A stretch of 10,759 bases of DNA from Candidatus Thorarchaeota archaeon (lineage in GTDB: Archaea; Asgardarchaeota; Thorarchaeia; Thorarchaeales; Thorarchaeaceae): contig JAEORO010000205.1 of NCBI GenBank assembly GCA_016840855.1, positions 1 through 10,759 on the forward strand, written 5' to 3'. The notes beneath the pieces are model-generated. The model had not been told where the DNA came from and searched no databases. It saw nothing but the letters and a program-made list of their open reading frames with translations. The stretch's first letter is position 1. Each line of letters starts with the position of its first letter. Both the position numbers and the translations under genes were made by a program. Shown piece by piece: positions 1 through 7,551 of the stretch.

Positions 1-1710
1 CATCCATCGACACGATTGAATCAGTTTCATTTAGTGATATCCGGGTTTTCAAGTAATGCAAGAATAACGAAGGATGTTCTAAAATATCAGATATGACCCT
101 GAAATCGTTGAGGTATACGAACCAAGGCCACTCTTTTCCTGAAAGAAGATTCAATCTTTGTGCAGATGACAGATGTGCACTTATTTCGTATATTGGTTCA
201 AAACTAACTAGTATTATGAATATGTGCTTGAATTTCGCATTTTCAATAGAAATTACATGCTCTCCTTTCTCGTTATAGAATGGAACTACTTTATCCGATT
301 TGATATAATGTATAGCACGCGTTGCCTGATTATGTGCTGATTTTAAAATGTCCTTCAAATTATCTCTTAATTTTGTTATAGATCCTCTTTTTGCCGAGAT
401 TGGAATTGAACCTGCCTTTGCTTCAACAATTACCAAACAATCATCATATTCTATCAATCCATCCAGTTCAAAGGGACTCTCTCCTTCCAACATACTATAG
501 TAGAGGTTTCTATGTACTTTAGACTCTGGACGTAATTTACTACTTATATCAAGCGAAGTATTTTCGACGTATTTTGATCTGCTTGGTAGATAACTTCTAT
601 TGTAATAACGAGAAGAATGTTTCTCTAGAAGGTTTTCGAAGAGTTGTATTCTATTCATTGATAGAAGCCAAGGATAAAATAGATAATATTTCTCTTTGAA
701 TTTGATAAAGGGTCTACTATTTATGATTGTATCGTTCGTTGGCCATCCTCTCCATTTTTGTAATCCTAAAAGAAATTCTTCATTATCTCCGAAGATGCAA
801 CTCATTTTTTCGAGTATGGCTCTGTCAGAATCACTATGAGGTTGAATTTTGAAAACATCGTAGTCACCTAGAGTGTTTCTGAATGAATTCTCAATATCTT
901 CCATTGAGGGTGTTCCTTGGCTGTCTTTATGTTTATGTGAATCAGGTTCTTTCACATCTTTTTGCTCTGTATTTATCAATTGCTTCATTTTTTCTTGAAA
1001 TTCAACTAACTTACTATGATACTTTTGATTCTCTTTTCTAAATGCAGAAGTAATGGATTCCTCGATACGACCTAGAAATTCATTATAATCAGTAGATGAG
1101 AATGATATAATTTTCTGCAGGTGACTATTATGAGGTTTAAATAAATCCAGAAATGTTTGTTCTATATGACTTGTGTAGTCATTTCCTCTTACGAACAGAA
1201 AACGTACTATCAAGGCGCCTCGAAGTAACTCCTCAGACATGTTTTCTTTTTTAGTAGAACTAATGGGTCCAAAATACATTTCCAAGCTGAGTTTCAACAT
1301 ATTCCACAAAAGAGGAACTTTTGTGATTGCTTCGAATGTTGGTTGTTTTAGTGATTCTTTATAGGGCTTAGCTAAGGCAAGACTTGCGAAGTATTCAACA
1401 ATGGTTAGACTAACTGTGATTTGTGATTCAACATATGTTTCTGCATTTAATAATCCCACATTCTTCGATAACCAAGAAATAAGATCTAATGGATTATATT
1501 CATCTAATATCTGTTCGATTTCCTTGATATTTTTATTAATCCCATCATACAATCTTTTTTGGGATTTGTTTTCGCGTTTCACCATGAGTAACCGCTTCCC
1601 TCAACTACATTAGCATTTTCACTTAGAATCATTAATTGGATACTCGCAATACAATTTCAAATCTCTGTATTGATTGCTTGTAAATTCTTAGATAGAAAAT
1701 ATAATCCCCA
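1..1710. mobile_element. Probable end of an AT-rich integrated element or island abutting the tRNA-Phe fragment
   Basis: Composition shifts at the tRNA fragment: hand counts give 16/60 G+C for line 661 and 21/60 for line 421, against 27/60 for line 1861 and 33/60 for line 3781. The cargo is nuclease-like. No integrase or transposase is visible in the window. Confidence 0.5.
2..1585 (-). CDS. Large PD-(D/E)XK / NERD-like nuclease domain protein, 3'-partial (at least 528 aa, runs off the left edge)
   Basis: Manual translation of the minus strand from ATG at 1585 (MVKRENKSQKRLYDGINKNIKEIEQILDEYNPLDLISWLS...) stays open to base 2. It contains YVE...ELDGLIEYDDCLVIVEAK (469->416)...SAHNQATRAIHYI, matching the E...D...ExK plus Q-helix pattern of PD-(D/E)XK/NERD folds. 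Purine-rich GAGGGAAG lies upstream. Absent from the ORF track because no stop falls inside the window. Confidence 0.85.
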   Translation of the reverse strand, partial: MVKRENKSQKRLYDGINKNIKEIEQILDEYNPLDLISWLSKNVGLLNAETYVESQITVSLTIVEYFASLALAKPYKESLKQPTFEAITKVPLLWNMLKLSLEMYFGPISSTKKENMSEELLRGALIVRFLFVRGNDYTSHIEQTFLDLFKPHNSHLQKIISFSSTDYNEFLGRIEESITSAFRKENQKYHSKLVEFQEKMKQLINTEQKDVKEPDSHKHKDSQGTPSMEDIENSFRNTLGDYDVFKIQPHSDSDRAILEKMSCIFGDNEEFLLGLQKWRGWPTNDTIINSRPFIKFKEKYYLFYPWLLSMNRIQLFENLLEKHSSRYYNRSYLPSRSKYVENTSLDISSKLRPESKVHRNLYYSMLEGESPFELDGLIEYDDCLVIVEAKAGSIPISAKRGSITKLRDNLKDILKSAHNQATRAIHYIKSDKVVPFYNEKGEHVISIENAKFKHIFIILVSFEPIYEISAHLSSAQRLNLLSGKEWPWFVYLNDFRVISDILEHPSLFLHYLKTRISLNETDSIVSMD

Positions 1711-1712
1711 AA

Positions 1713-1756
1713 CACGGTCTTCAGCCGTGCGATCTCCCAGGCTGATCTACCGCGGC
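1713..1756 (-). tRNA. tRNA-Phe(GAA), 5' portion only (positions 1-43); T-arm and 3' acceptor strand absent
   Basis: Minus strand reads GCCGCGG TA GATC AGCCTGGGA GATC G CACGG CTGAAGA CCGTG: acceptor 5' strand, U8-A9, 4-bp D stem with GG in the loop, perfect 5-bp anticodon stem, CU-GAA-GA loop with G37. It then continues TTTGGGGATTATATTTTC..., with no GTTCRAATC and no CCGCGGC. Confidence 0.88.
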
Positions 1757-1788
1757 ATAGCCTGCAATTCGTTTTCCTAGGCTTTTGT

Positions 1789-1797
1789 GATATAAAG
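1789..1797 (-). promoter_or_regulatory. TATA box of the tRNA-Phe gene
   Basis: Minus strand CTTTATATC lies about 35-40 nt upstream of tRNA position 1, consistent with an archaeal promoter and a short 5' leader. Confidence 0.6.
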
Positions 1798-1814
1798 ATA
1801 GCGCCATGGTGTGA

Positions 1815-2288
1815 TTATTGCAATTTCTCAACAGCCATCTTCACTTCATCAAAAGGCGGGAGCTTGCCTGGATTATCACTCACCCACGCATAGACAACTG
1901 TTTGGTCCACATCAATGACAAATACAGCTCTCTTTGCGACGTCTTTCATACCTGCTAAATCTGGATGGACTACTTCATAGCTCCTGATGACTGTTTTTTC
2001 CCAATCTGAAAGGAGAGGGAACTGAATGTCATTGACTTCCTTGAATGCCTTATGGCTGAAAATTCCATCGACCGAGATTCCCAGTACATTTGCTCCCATG
2101 TCATTATAATCTGCCAACACATCTCTAAACCTGCAGAGCTCTTCCTGACAAACAGAACTGAAATCTGCTGGGTAGAATACAAGCACAACAGGACCCTTTT
2201 GGAGTTCCTCACTCAAGGTAACAGTTTTTCCCGGGGCTTCTAAGAGTGTAAAATCTGGAGCTTCACTTCCTACATCCAATCTTGTCAA
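1815..2288 (-). CDS. Peroxiredoxin (AhpC/TSA family; BCP/PrxQ- or AhpE-like)
   Basis: FYPADFSSVCQEELC contains the PxxxSxxC peroxidatic motif with a second Cys 5 residues downstream. Also APDFTL, VLGISVD, FPLLSD and KRAVFVID. Start placed at TTG 2288 behind a GAGGTG RBS; the track's GTG at 2297 is itself part of that RBS. Confidence 0.92.
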   Translation of the reverse strand: MTRLDVGSEAPDFTLLEAPGKTVTLSEELQKGPVVLVFYPADFSSVCQEELCRFRDVLADYNDMGANVLGISVDGIFSHKAFKEVNDIQFPLLSDWEKTVIRSYEVVHPDLAGMKDVAKRAVFVIDVDQTVVYAWVSDNPGKLPPFDEVKMAVEKLQ

Positions 2289-2356
2289 AACAAGCACCTC
2301 ACAATGAATCGCTCTGAATTTGATTTTTAAGATTTGAGATGCTGCAATATCTCTCT

Positions 2357-2878
2357 TTACTTAATTTTGTAATTCATATAACTTGCAACAAAGGCAGTCG
2401 CGATTGCTGCTGCGTTTACCCCAAGAATGTAAACAAATAACGGATCAAGAAATGCAAGGGTGGCTAGCCATGATGGCAGACTTCCTGCGTCTGCAAATCC
2501 GAACGGGACGAAGTAAAACAAGAAAAACACACAAGTCAAGAGACCTACGCCCAAAAACACAGGCATGTCTGATGTGGAACGAGCAAATGCTGATAACCTA
2601 CCAATCCAGTTTGTCTGGCCTCTCTGTCTTCTACGTGTCTTTCTCTTCGCTAAGATATGTGCCCATCGATACATTGCTTCAGCCATGAGTATGTATGAGC
2701 CTCCAAGCACCACCATTACTCCAATTGACACAAGTAGTTGGAGTTCTGCGCTGAGAACGTTGACATAGAGCTGTGCATGCCAGATTATTGGTATCTGAAC
2801 AAAACCTGCAATACCTAATAGTATTAGAACAAGACCGGGTTTGCTGCCACGTCTCCACCATACTGCAAGGCTCATCAT
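2357..2878 (-). CDS. Hypothetical integral membrane protein (about 4 TM segments)
   Basis: Four hydrophobic stretches with a basic loop (KRKTRRRQR) between the second and third. AGGTGA RBS upstream of the ATG. Confidence 0.75.
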   Translation of the reverse strand: MMSLAVWWRRGSKPGLVLILLGIAGFVQIPIIWHAQLYVNVLSAELQLLVSIGVMVVLGGSYILMAEAMYRWAHILAKRKTRRRQRGQTNWIGRLSAFARSTSDMPVFLGVGLLTCVFFLFYFVPFGFADAGSLPSWLATLAFLDPLFVYILGVNAAAIATAFVASYMNYKIK

Positions 2879-4287: not shown

Positions 4288-4917
4288 ATGGATCTCACAG
4301 ATATCACAAACATGATTGTCGAGCTTGACATCGATAATGTAGCGAACGCTGTTCAGCAGCAAATCAACGCTGGCGCAAACCCACAAGACATTCTAAAAGC
4401 GCTTACAATGGGAATGGAAGAAGTCGGCAGAAGATATGAAGCAGATGAGTATTTTCTTGCTGAACTTGTTCTAGCTGGTGATACCATGAAAACAGCATTT
4501 GAGGTCCTTAAGCCACACCTGAAGTCAGAAGACACTGGTGACAAGACCCCTATCATCGCAGCCACTGTCAAAGGAGACAACCATGATATCGGGAAAAATA
4601 TTCTCATCTCAATGTTGGTATCAGCTGGATTTGAAGTGGTTGATCTTGGAACCGACTGCCCCGCAGAGAAGATTGTTGATGCTGTTAGAAACACAAGCAC
4701 CAAAATTGTTGCTCTCAGTGCGCTACTTACGATGACAATGAGAGAGATATCTACTGTTGACAAGGCCCTCCAAGAGGCTGGTCTGCGAAACAATGTGAAG
4801 ATAATAGTGGGTGGAGCCCCGCTCTCTATGGAGCTAGCCAAAGAGTTAGGTGCAGATGATTATGGTCCAGACGCTATTGATGGTGTGAAACGGATCAGGG
4901 CTCTATTGGAAAGCTGA
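4288..4917 (+). CDS. Methyltransferase cognate corrinoid (cobalamin-binding) protein, MtmC/MttC/MtaC-like
   Basis: N-terminal cap domain GMEEVGRRYEADEYFLAEL and B12-binding signature GDNHDIGKN...SALLT...IVGGAP (DxHxxG-SxL-GG). GGAG RBS upstream. Confidence 0.93.
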   Translation: MDLTDITNMIVELDIDNVANAVQQQINAGANPQDILKALTMGMEEVGRRYEADEYFLAELVLAGDTMKTAFEVLKPHLKSEDTGDKTPIIAATVKGDNHDIGKNILISMLVSAGFEVVDLGTDCPAEKIVDAVRNTSTKIVALSALLTMTMREISTVDKALQEAGLRNNVKIIVGGAPLSMELAKELGADDYGPDAIDGVKRIRALLES

Positions 4918-4926
4918 TTTAGTTCA

Positions 4927-4949
4927 GTGACTTCGAAAATGCGTCACTA
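4927..4949 (+). terminator. Short hairpin just after the corrinoid gene (possible terminator or stability element)
   Basis: AGTGAC-TTCGAAAATGC-GTCACT, a 6-bp stem about 10 nt after the TGA. No strong U-tract follows. Confidence 0.25.
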
Positions 4950-5065
4950 AGTTCCTTATACTAGCTGCAACAAATATATTGGTATAGATACGCAATCATT
5001 ATGTCCTTTAGAAACCATTGATTATCCACTGGAGATTATATGTCCATTCCTAGGTGTGAATATTT

Positions 5066-5230
5066 TTGGAAGAAGATGAATCTGCCCTCGAAACAGGTTT
5101 CAAGGTAGTTGCAATCATGCAGACCATAACAGAGGATTTGGATGAATCCGGGAAGAAGGCTTGGCGCAAGATGCTTGGACTGGATAAGACTGAGTCTAGT
5201 AAGAGCAAGAATTCTAAAAGAAAGAAATGA
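5066..5230 (+). CDS. Small hypothetical protein (54 aa) with acidic N-terminus and basic tail
   Basis: TTG start after an AGGTG RBS: MEEDESALETGFKVVAIMQTITEDLDESGKKAWRKMLGLDKTESSKSKNSKRKK*. Shorter than any ORF in the track. Confidence 0.55.
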   Translation: MEEDESALETGFKVVAIMQTITEDLDESGKKAWRKMLGLDKTESSKSKNSKRKK

Positions 5231-5401
5231 TTGTCTTGAAACTATGATATATGTGGTTGAGTCATCTTACATGTATGACATGCTAAAATGCAGTAATTAT
5301 CATCTATAAGTTAAGCAGATAATATCTAATCCATCTAGTAAATTAAAATGAGCACAAGTTTGAAAGGTTAGAACTCTCAGGTCATAAAGAGGAGTAGAAC
5401 C

Positions 5402-5821
5402 ATGTTTATAGTCAGGCCTGTGAATGTCGAACGTTGTATCTCTTGCTACTCCTGTGTATTTGCGTGCAGCCGTCGGACAGGACATGTTGATATCGGACAT
5501 GCGGCACTTCGAATCAAATCAACTCCTCCACCCACTGCTGGGGGGTCGGGAGGAAATTATGTAGTAATCATGTGCAGAGCTTGCACAGAACCAGTCTGCC
5601 TTGAAGCATGTCAGTATGATGCAATCAAACAAAAACCCGGCGGCGGAATTATAATCAATCAAGTAAAATGTATTGGCTGTGGCGATTGCGCTGATGTGTG
5701 CCCTCTTACTGCTATCTTCATCGACTCATTTCGAAAGAAAGCTGTTGTGTGTATACATTGTGGTGAATGTACTGACTGGTGTCCGCATAACATTTTGATA
5801 AAGGAGGACATAGGAAAATGA
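5402..5821 (+). CDS. 4x[4Fe-4S] polyferredoxin-type small subunit of the AOR-family enzyme
   Basis: 16 Cys in four groups: CISCYSCVFAC, CRACTEPVCLEAC, CIGCGDCADVC, CIHCGECTDWC. GAGGAG RBS. ATGA overlap with the next gene. Confidence 0.93.
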   Translation: MFIVRPVNVERCISCYSCVFACSRRTGHVDIGHAALRIKSTPPPTAGGSGGNYVVIMCRACTEPVCLEACQYDAIKQKPGGGIIINQVKCIGCGDCADVCPLTAIFIDSFRKKAVVCIHCGECTDWCPHNILIKEDIGK

Positions 5822-7551
5822 ATCAAGGAAAAGTCCTCCATATCGACTTATCATCTCAGACTTCTGAAACAATGGAGAGGTACGATCTTTTTGAGAAATA
5901 CATAGGTGGTGTTGGAGTTGCTTCAAAACTGCTCCTTGATAACACTCCTCCCAACACAAATTACGAGGATGCCCCAATCATTTTTGCAACAGGTCCATTG
6001 AACATGTTTTACCCATGTTGCGCAAAGACTGTTGCACTTTTCAAATCCCCCCTGACTGACAATCTTGGAGAGAGTTATGCAGGTGGCAAACTAAGCATGG
6101 CAATGCGACTAGCTGGTCATGATGTTATTATGATTACTGGCAAACTCGAGAAACCTCATTACCTTCTAATTCAAGATGACAGCGTGGAATTTCGCAACGC
6201 CCACGCATTATGGGGATTGTCAACCAGAGCAACAGGACGAATACTAAAAGAAAAATCACCTGGGGAAGGAAAACGTTCCATACTCCGTATAGGAGTTGCT
6301 GGAGAAAATCAAGTACGATATGCAATGGTCGTGGTAGACACAATTCGTCATTTCGGTAGACTAGGTCTTGGTTGCGTTATGGGGGCAAAGAAGCTAAAGG
6401 GTCTTGTCATAACCGGAACTCGGAATTATAAAGTACCATCAGTCAAGAGCTATCGGACAGAGTATATGAAAATCCATGAACTGGTGATGCGTACTGGCCG
6501 AATGGATAAATACGACATTCTTGGAACATCTGTGAATATACTAACGCTCAATGAGATGCAGGCACTTCCTACGCGCAATTTCAGTTCCTTCACCTTTGAA
6601 GGTGCGGAAGGGATCTCTGGGGAACAATTTGCAGACAATGTTCTTGTGGGGAAGAGTGCTTGTGTTCCTTGCCCAATAGGATGTATCCATATTGCACAGC
6701 TTCGTGTCCAGTTCGATTCAAAACATCGAGATTATGGAACTATTTACGTTCCTTATGACTACGAACTAATCTACGCGTTTGGCTCAAATCTTGGTATTGG
6801 TGGAACCGAAGATGTTCTTCAGATGATAGAAAGAGCAGATGTCAGAGGACTTGATGCAATAAGTTCTGGTGTTGTATTAGGGTGGACAACTGAAGCATAC
6901 AACAAGGGTCTTGTTACAACCGAAGAACTTGATGGCCTAATCCCACGCTGGGGCGATACGAGTGTGTATCTGAAGATGCTAGACAATATCACAACTCATC
7001 CGAATGAGTTCTATCGTATTGCTGGTCTGGGTATACATGCTCTTGAGAAAAGATATGGAGGTAGTGAGTTCGCTGTCCACTTCGAAGGGAATGAAGCAAC
7101 AGGGTATCATACTGGACCAGCGAATATCGTAGGTCATATGGTTGGAATTCGTCATAGCCACTTAGACAATGCGGGCTATAGTATCGACCAAAAAACCTTG
7201 TCTAAACCCCTTACCAATGTTGAGGTAGGGAAGCTTCTTGCTGAAGAAGACACTTGGCGAACTGTTCTTAATTCATTGATCATTTGTTTATTTGCGAGAC
7301 CTGTTTTTACCCCAGATGTGGTCCTGAGTGCTCTGAAGATATTAGGTGAGGAACGAACTGTTGAGGAGTTGAATAGGATAGGAGAAGAAGTATTTCATCT
7401 TAAGGTGCAGTTCAAGTCTCAGGAAGGATTTAGTCTTGACACATTATCTCCTCCTGCTCGTTTATTAGAGAGACTGTCGCCCCACGGGAGAGTAGAGAAG
7501 AGTACAGTTGAAGAAATTATTAGTTCTTGGAGAAACTCACACGATTTATGA
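5818..7551 (+). CDS. Aldehyde:ferredoxin oxidoreductase family (tungstopterin) large subunit
   Basis: YIGGVGVA, IFATGPL, KSPLT..LGESYAGG, IGVAGEN, GRLGLGCVMGAKKLKG, LPTRNF, CVPCPIGC, DYE, GLDAISSG and the fourth cluster Cys in SLIICLF. GGAGG RBS. Confidence 0.95.
   Translation: MNQGKVLHIDLSSQTSETMERYDLFEKYIGGVGVASKLLLDNTPPNTNYEDAPIIFATGPLNMFYPCCAKTVALFKSPLTDNLGESYAGGKLSMAMRLAGHDVIMITGKLEKPHYLLIQDDSVEFRNAHALWGLSTRATGRILKEKSPGEGKRSILRIGVAGENQVRYAMVVVDTIRHFGRLGLGCVMGAKKLKGLVITGTRNYKVPSVKSYRTEYMKIHELVMRTGRMDKYDILGTSVNILTLNEMQALPTRNFSSFTFEGAEGISGEQFADNVLVGKSACVPCPIGCIHIAQLRVQFDSKHRDYGTIYVPYDYELIYAFGSNLGIGGTEDVLQMIERADVRGLDAISSGVVLGWTTEAYNKGLVTTEELDGLIPRWGDTSVYLKMLDNITTHPNEFYRIAGLGIHALEKRYGGSEFAVHFEGNEATGYHTGPANIVGHMVGIRHSHLDNAGYSIDQKTLSKPLTNVEVGKLLAEEDTWRTVLNSLIICLFARPVFTPDVVLSALKILGEERTVEELNRIGEEVFHLKVQFKSQEGFSLDTLSPPARLLERLSPHGRVEKSTVEEIISSWRNSHDL

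Follow-up and report, generated by a model that had tools for sequence, protein, structure and literature searches.

A promoter-bearing 5' piece of tRNA-Phe in a Thorarchaeota genome, probably the left edge of an insertion at the tRNA gene

The stretch of DNA analysed here (the window) is the entire contig JAEORO010000205.1 (10,759 nt; C168 in our numbering) of a Candidatus Thorarchaeota archaeon genome, G000, the assembly of which comprises 3.36 Mb in 259 contigs, is 92% complete and 6.3% contaminated, and keeps no contigs below 2,037 nt. On the minus strand of the window, the native promoter of a tRNA-Phe(GAA) gene is followed by a 5' piece of that gene, which gives way at the variable loop to AT-rich DNA and to a putative nuclease gene, here called the cargo gene; upstream of the promoter lie the genes for a peroxiredoxin (Prx) and for a membrane protein (Table 1). 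A preliminary description of the sequence had noted that the promoter-bearing piece enters AT-rich DNA without a T arm, and this is confirmed: the promoter scores 13.0 with a matrix trained on 24 tRNA promoter sites of G000, on par with the other tRNA promoters of the genome (training-set median about 13), no T arm follows the piece, and the GC content is 33% left of the junction versus 42%, the genome mean, right of it.

The piece starts at position 1756 and consists of the acceptor 5' strand (1756-1750), the D stem GATC/GATC (1747-1744 and 1734-1731) and the anticodon stem-loop (1729-1713, with the GAA anticodon at 1722-1720), followed by TT at 1712-1711. ARAGORN calls no tRNA in the window and Rfam gives no tRNA match, and folding the piece together with its trailer yields neither a cloverleaf nor a substitute for the T arm. 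Compared with the intact tRNA-Phe gene of the closest relative, G026, it has no mismatch over nt 1-45 (E 4e-17) and first differs at nt 46, so that the clean 5' portion described earlier stands, with a length of 45-46 nt and not 44. Among species genomes, the piece has nine exact matches, all of them in Thorarchaeota. The TATA box lies 40 nt upstream of the tRNA start, and 50 of the 55 bases upstream of the piece are identical to the sequence before the intact G026 gene. The GATC/GATC D stem had been regarded as a compensatory pair and thereby as a sign of a real tRNA, a reading that we do not retain, since this stem is the norm of the family (GATC in 56 and GATT in 22 of 78 tRNA-Phe starts); as evidence of function it was likewise rejected, being found in truncated pieces too. 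Judged by its position and orientation, the stranded promoter faces the cargo gene and could drive its transcription, although the cargo of another relative, G008, lies on the opposite strand, so that a promoter facing the cargo is no rule. Directly after the anticodon stem, bases 1704-1712 (minus strand) are similar to seven bases close to where the 43/44 introns of G010 and L071 begin; the similarity may mark an intron remnant or be due to chance.

Table 1 Features at the tRNA-Phe locus of the window, with the basis of each assignment
Feature	Position	Strand	Basis or remark
Native tRNA-Phe promoter: B recognition element (BRE)-like CGCTA motif and TATA box (TATA start 1796)	1789..1805	-	Matrix score, alignment with G026
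Spacer and predicted 5' leader, from TATA box to tRNA start	1757..1788	-	Sequence, aligned with G026; predicted transcription start
tRNA-Phe(GAA) 5' piece	1711..1756	-	nt 1-45 (1756-1712) as in the G026 gene; nt 46 (1711) is the other common allele
AT-rich left end of the putative insert, between tRNA piece and cargo gene	1586..1710	-	No match in the other loci fetched
Cargo gene, putative NERD-like PD-(D/E)XK nuclease, cut by contig end	2..1585	-	Same strand as the tRNA promoter; motif, weak NERD matches
Peroxiredoxin (AhpC/TSA; Prx) gene	1815..2297	-	Usual upstream neighbour of tRNA-Phe within the genus
Conserved membrane-protein gene, without Pfam family	2357..2878	-	Upstream of the locus

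Searches of the G000 assembly with ARAGORN and Rfam give no whole tRNA-Phe. A pattern search located one isolated tRNA-Phe 3' piece (end of the variable loop, T arm, acceptor 3' strand and CCA) at C153:208-239. It lies 207 nt from the contig start, and an FTR1 gene (assigned by Pfam) ends 17 nt away from it, which is the native spacing. As the gene order in relatives is membrane gene, Prx, tRNA-Phe and FTR1, and Prx with the 5' piece lies on C168 while the 3' piece with FTR1 lies on C153, both contigs represent the two sides of one locus. Aligned to the G026 gene, the 5' piece accounts for nt 1-45 and the 3' piece for nt 46-77; nothing is missing or doubled between them, and the break falls at nt 45/46 or 46/47. 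Neither contig end on the locus side overlaps another contig and nothing in the assembly extends either side of the gap, and the 3' end of the cargo gene (its last 110-190 codons) is missing from the assembly; the 207-nt flank before the 3' piece has no match in any of 85 relatives. In the assembly, 87 contig pairs overlap by 127 nt, implying an assembly word longer than the 46-nt repeat, which speaks against a join by repeat collapse. For tRNA-Glu(CTC), too, the assembly has no intact copy but three near-whole pieces, a precedent for a whole gene dropping out where pieces multiply. These 3' pieces, without about the first nine bases, lie at C49:4432-4507, C189:8661-8719 and C236:7401-7467, and a similar long tRNA-Arg piece is found at C45:1871. 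Elsewhere in G000, C63:3587-3645 (plus strand) carries a decayed, promoter-bearing 5' piece that is tRNA-Ala-like and has no T arm, its upstream sequence resembling that of the whole tRNA-Ala(GGC) gene on C201, and at C72:35074-35164 ARAGORN calls an SeC(TCA) tRNA.

Across the family, matches were obtained in 79 of 85 genomes, and 74 tRNA-Phe loci from 69 genomes were examined, four of these loci stopping at a contig edge inside the gene; the remaining matches are short ones to other tRNAs. Five of the 69 genomes have a 5' piece at the first promoter of the locus, and all five hold a whole tRNA-Phe under a different promoter, 0.18-8.8 kb off, the second promoters looking like ordinary tRNA promoters. 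In G008, the piece extends to nt 48, giving a 48-nt direct repeat, and the whole gene lies 1,200 nt away with one gene between; in G010, the piece also extends to nt 48 but has an altered anticodon, and the whole gene, 177 nt away, differs from it in the acceptor stem and carries an intron. The pieces of G032 and G080, which probably go back to a single event, run into a T-loop intron and are followed by whole genes 179 and 176 nt away, whereas G001 has a decayed piece with the whole gene 8.8 kb away on the opposite strand, under a different promoter and with a different set of introns. The empty, intact site is represented by G026. That all five relatives with a 5' piece also hold a whole gene under a different promoter makes it likely, by analogy, that the unassembled gap before the C153 piece holds a complete tRNA-Phe gene under a promoter of its own. 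An insertion boundary with the whole gene under another promoter, as the preliminary description had proposed, is thus backed by five of five relatives, although in G000 the gap is unassembled and the gene not seen directly.

Of the 69 genomes, 12 carry one or a few cargo genes with a clear 3' piece behind them; these pieces start between nt 46 and 57, and the count leaves out G076 (near-whole second copy), G078 (degenerate match), G102 (likely chance match) and G021b (gene at the contig start); 5' and 3' pieces alike cluster near nt 45-51. In the five relatives with a 5' piece, no 3' remnant follows the whole gene, the contig of G010 ending about 35 nt past it. The second copy of G076 (L125, C47:2167-2322) begins within 10 nt of the whole tRNA-Phe, represents another allele and is without its first seven bases. 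At L165 (G001, C18:4300-13845), tRNA-Phe and cassette are inverted relative to the native promoter, FTR1 is missing and a broken tyrosine-recombinase remnant adjoins. Between closely related Thorarchaeota, tRNA-Phe differs in its introns at four or more positions (D arm, anticodon loop, 43/44 and T loop), and a single gene may hold as many as two (L043, L045, L060, L063, L131, L156 and others). In several genomes of the genus (L051, L055-L058 and L060), tRNA-Phe is preceded by a different promoter and by a double zinc-ribbon gene in opposite orientation, and Prx is sometimes lost; this arrangement is perhaps an older replacement of the 5' type whose piece has since been deleted.

Contigs of three of the seven public sequencing runs examined (X1, X2 and X3, from two studies; X1 is possibly the source sample of G000) join the cargo to 30 letters of the tRNA piece, one short of the 31 required by our bridge rule, 30 letters being the furthest a contig can extend into a shared repeat; the junction is missing from the other four. 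Contig depth in the runs is 2-6 on the cargo side versus 13-33 for identical contigs on the Prx side, depth not being equivalent to share of cells. In run X6, eight upstream bases and nt 1-45 continue, on an 86-nt contig, into an intact 3' half with the sequence of the C153 piece; as this run also carries the native promoter without differences, an empty, intact site exists in this or a sister population. Viral contigs gave no match to the 5' pattern and six matches to the 3' pattern, all of them unrelated tRNA ends. The pattern of a 5' half without a normal variable loop occurs in three of 86 family genomes, namely G000, G008 and an intron-bearing whole gene of G022, and a metagenome scan for it yielded four loci, all whole genes with a 43/44 intron.

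The cargo ORF (open reading frame) starts at position 1585 and encodes 528 aa before it runs off the contig. Its homologues comprise eight close proteins (641-720 aa, 39-72% identity), two of them Thorarchaeota hypothetical proteins, and seven distant ones, two of which carry a SEC-C motif. Residues E341, D375, E388 and K390 are invariant in all 15 aligned proteins and form an E...D...ExK motif, which we take to be the catalytic motif of PD-(D/E)XK type. The Pfam family NERD matches six of the 15 family members weakly (best E 0.0024) and the cargo protein itself not at all, NERD-bearing Atlas clusters are matched at 0.97 with NERD on 14-34% of their members, and a search by sequence gave no solved structural relative. 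These matches weakly suggest a NERD-like nuclease, so that the nuclease assignment made earlier stands at the level of the invariant E/D/E/K motif but not as a NERD match of the protein itself. Homologues of the cargo occur in four of 60 family genomes at other loci, which identifies it as wandering cargo and not as part of the tRNA site. Elsewhere in the window (4288-7551) lie ordinary metabolic genes, for a corrinoid (B12-binding) protein, a ferredoxin and an aldehyde:ferredoxin oxidoreductase.

Two halves that add up to one tRNA, with no whole gene in the assembly, raise the question of a giant intron or a trans-spliced split tRNA, both of which had been considered in the preliminary description. 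Bulge-helix-bulge motifs were scored by their central helix of 4 bp and the intron stem next to it over 12 junction registers between both flanks, with eight intron-bearing relatives as positive controls, and in none of the 12 registers did helix and stem occur together. At register 43/44, G000 forms one of four central pairs with a stem run of 0, whereas all eight intron-bearing relatives form two or three of four with stem runs of 2-8; the best partial registers in G000 are those after nt 40 (three of four pairs, stem run of 2) and after nt 45 (two of four pairs, stem run of 3). Pairing of flank with flank, measured as duplex energy, was no better than in shuffles (80% and 60% of 300 shuffles equal), and a complementary trailer and leader of at least 13 bp is not present between the flanks, whereas known split tRNAs, as summarised in PMC3218864, have bulge-helix-bulge motifs and complementary stems of 13-14 bp. 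Before the 3' piece, a TTTAAA word at -30 reaches a matrix score of 1.0 (versus 13.0 for the native promoter), a score that random matched windows reach in 6% of cases at this spacing and in 23% over a wider range, and it is not accompanied by the upstream motif typical of tRNA promoters in G000. The isolated 3' piece that a split gene calls for does exist, but with no splice motif, flanks that pair like shuffles and only a weak TATA-like word before the 3' piece, a giant intron or trans-splicing at tRNA-Phe is unlikely.

The reading that we favour, with a probability of roughly 60%, is that the window contains the left edge of an insertion at tRNA-Phe, consisting of a cassette with cargo, promoter and 5' half and of a separate cassette of the 3' type, with the whole gene in the gap. 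A small circular cassette, with a tRNA promoter and a second tRNA 5' half in addition to the cargo, would have recombined into the anticodon/variable-loop region of the resident tRNA-Phe gene, leaving the old promoter with a dead 5' piece that points into the cargo, while the gene would have been rebuilt downstream under the incoming promoter; with the 5' half on the promoter side, a new promoter has to come with the insert. The native 3' end would have been displaced to C153 by another cassette, of the common 3' type, and the recombinase would act in trans or would have been lost.

Several observations weigh against this proposal. Two independent events give an exact abutment of the pieces only occasionally, one clean cut always; few of the 3' pieces seen are as long as that on C153; besides one 14-mer of another tRNA, only the two pieces in G000 share 14-mers with tRNA-Phe; no contig among the runs examined covers promoter, piece and cargo together; and the whole gene of G001 is inverted, which simple direct-repeat integration would not produce. 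To these belong the recombinase searches: PF00589, PF16795 and PF00239 have no match in the 92% complete G000, PF16795 none in 28 genomes of the genus, and close homologues of the G001 integrase remnant adjoin no tRNA in any of 15 loci (judged by ARAGORN, which also missed the intron-bearing gene of G001 itself). There is no integrase ORF at the tRNA piece, no split integrase gene overlapping attachment (att) sites and no recombinase gene in the assembled part of the insert. PF00589 occurs in 23 of 61 family genomes, with a tRNA gene called within about 1.5 kb in only one of the 30 loci fetched, and integrase-like sequence at 79 tRNA-Phe loci, searched for with 24 frames from PF00589 loci as queries, was confined to G001 and to the region beyond FTR1 in L071; the G001 remnant may belong to an unrelated element. 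A small tyrosine-recombinase element was also found at L168-L171, in copies 84-87% identical in G034, G072, G015 and G017, with a conserved end of about 70 nt and at unrelated non-tRNA sites; it looks transposon-like.

The abutment is accounted for more simply if a single insertion cut the gene at nt 45/46 without duplication and brought its own complete tRNA-Phe, so that both pieces would be native halves; we regard this as unlikely, though as a tenable account. It conforms to the exact fit of the pieces relative to the allele shared by G026 and run X6 and to the native spacing of the 3' piece from the FTR1 stop, and the whole gene of G001, with another promoter and intron set on the opposite strand and FTR1 lost, shows that replacement can occur, as the divergent, intron-bearing whole copy of G010 may also suggest. 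The G001 picture is equally given by an inversion after integration, none of the five relatives with a 5' piece shows the leftover 3' piece that native halves would leave, and both kinds of piece cluster near nt 45-51 anyway. Under this account and the favoured two-cassette insertion alike, the piece is a scar and a whole gene exists. Rather improbable, in our view, is a mosaic of strains, with junctions and promoter from different cells that each hold a whole gene, or an assembly chimera across the 46-nt repeat. The contamination of 6.3%, the duplicated tRNA genes, public contigs that end inside the repeat, the junction missing in four of seven runs and, as a hint only, the lower depth of the cargo contigs would fit this; the long assembly word implied by the 127-nt overlaps and the same layout assembled independently in five relatives do not. 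A tandem duplication of promoter and gene, with the first copy losing its 3' half and the cargo arriving separately, would agree with the 176-179 nt and absent cargo gene between piece and whole gene in G010, G032 and G080 and with the near-whole second copy of G076, but it is very unlikely for G000, as the second promoter differs from the first in all five relatives, hence no local copy, and a piece with no mismatch over 45 nt is not decayed.

The remaining accounts do without a whole gene, and the chance that the gap holds none is very small indeed. No less doubtful is the corresponding picture of a strain that reads phenylalanine codons with a tRNA in two pieces, interrupted at the variable loop, its 5' half from the native promoter, its leaderless 3' half from the weak TATA word and the two held by an all-G-C acceptor stem without bulge-helix-bulge splicing. 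That tRNA-Phe is made by splicing, from a giant intron or in trans as in Nanoarchaeum, Caldivirga and Staphylothermus, is highly improbable: the pieces sum to exactly one tRNA, the whole gene is missing from the assembly, and the family splices introns at many positions including 43/44 beside the break, but precisely this register fails where all eight intron-bearing relatives score, no other register combines helix and stem, the flanks lack the 13-14-bp stems that PMC3218864 describes for known split tRNAs and pair like shuffles, and only the weak TATA-like word precedes the 3' piece. An unspliced tRNA nicked in the variable loop, with halves transcribed separately, trimmed and paired through the seven G-C pairs of the acceptor stem, seems to us extremely improbable. 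The exact abutment would suit it, and TTTAAA lies 30 nt before the 3' piece, about where the promoter of a leaderless transcript is expected, in a context that 6% of random matched windows equal; yet the word has no upstream tRNA-promoter motif and its score is reached by 23% of random windows over the wider range, the 207-nt flank recurs in none of the 85 relatives, and wherever a relative has a 5' piece, a whole gene is present too.

The 5'-half geometry has published counterparts. Integrases of pTN3 type have their site in the 5' half of a tRNA gene, which, once rebuilt, owes its expression to the element (PMC8371274); the shared site is 41 bp, with a minimal site of Leu 2-44 (PMC5495485). 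As far as these accounts go, our locus resembles these SSV-type elements of Thermococcales in an att core made of the tRNA 5' half and in what would be a rebuilt gene parted from its original promoter, a likeness in extent only, since the piece here spans nt 1-45/46 and the G008 repeat 48 nt versus Leu 2-44. In pTN3, as described there, the att site lies in the integrase gene, which is split on integration and leaves the tRNA under the integrase promoter, whereas here no integrase fragment follows the piece, PF16795 is missing from the 28 genomes of the genus searched, and the second promoters of relatives are tRNA-like. In Caldiarchaeum subterraneum, the tRNA-Thr(GGU) locus consists of a 5' fragment, a 1.8-kb insert and a rebuilt gene, varying within the population (Sugahara et al. 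2012, PMC3293823). According to that report, it shares with our locus a fragment with native upstream sequence, an insert of foreign composition, intact and interrupted forms in the population and intron-rich tRNA genes, and it differs in that its fragment covers nt 1-27 and its insert encodes a putative recombinase; here, the piece reaches nt 45-46, the visible cargo is NERD-like, there is no sign of a recombinase and the far side ends in a 3' piece. The locus thus works like the pTN3 and Caldiarchaeum cases but, as no split integrase is present, is not a member of the pTN3 type. With the split tRNAs of Nanoarchaeum, Caldivirga, Aeropyrum/Thermosphaera and Staphylothermus, in the form outlined in PMC3218864, it shares two halves that make one tRNA and no whole gene in the assembly, but here there is no bulge-helix-bulge, no complementary G+C-rich flanks and only a weak TATA-like word before the 3' half. 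Our literature search found no report of tRNA islands in Thorarchaeota and, by title and abstract start, nothing on split tRNAs in Asgard archaea.

In conclusion, the locus as read here represents a modest extension of what is known, as the rarer 5'-half insertion geometry, published for pTN3 of Thermococcales and for one Caldiarchaeum locus, now appears in Asgard archaea, and it cautions genome mining that exactly abutting tRNA halves on two contigs need not mean a split tRNA. Should the gap prove to be without a whole gene, this would be a new way of making an essential tRNA, and a two-piece tRNA-Phe, if true, would show a split tRNA of an Asgard archaeon at the moment of its origin. The tRNA-Phe site is a hot spot at which 5' pieces, 3' pieces, swapped promoters and introns at multiple positions vary among close relatives, with no recombinase seen, making it well suited to testing whether, as has been proposed, archaeal tRNA genes gain introns and become split through the action of mobile DNA.

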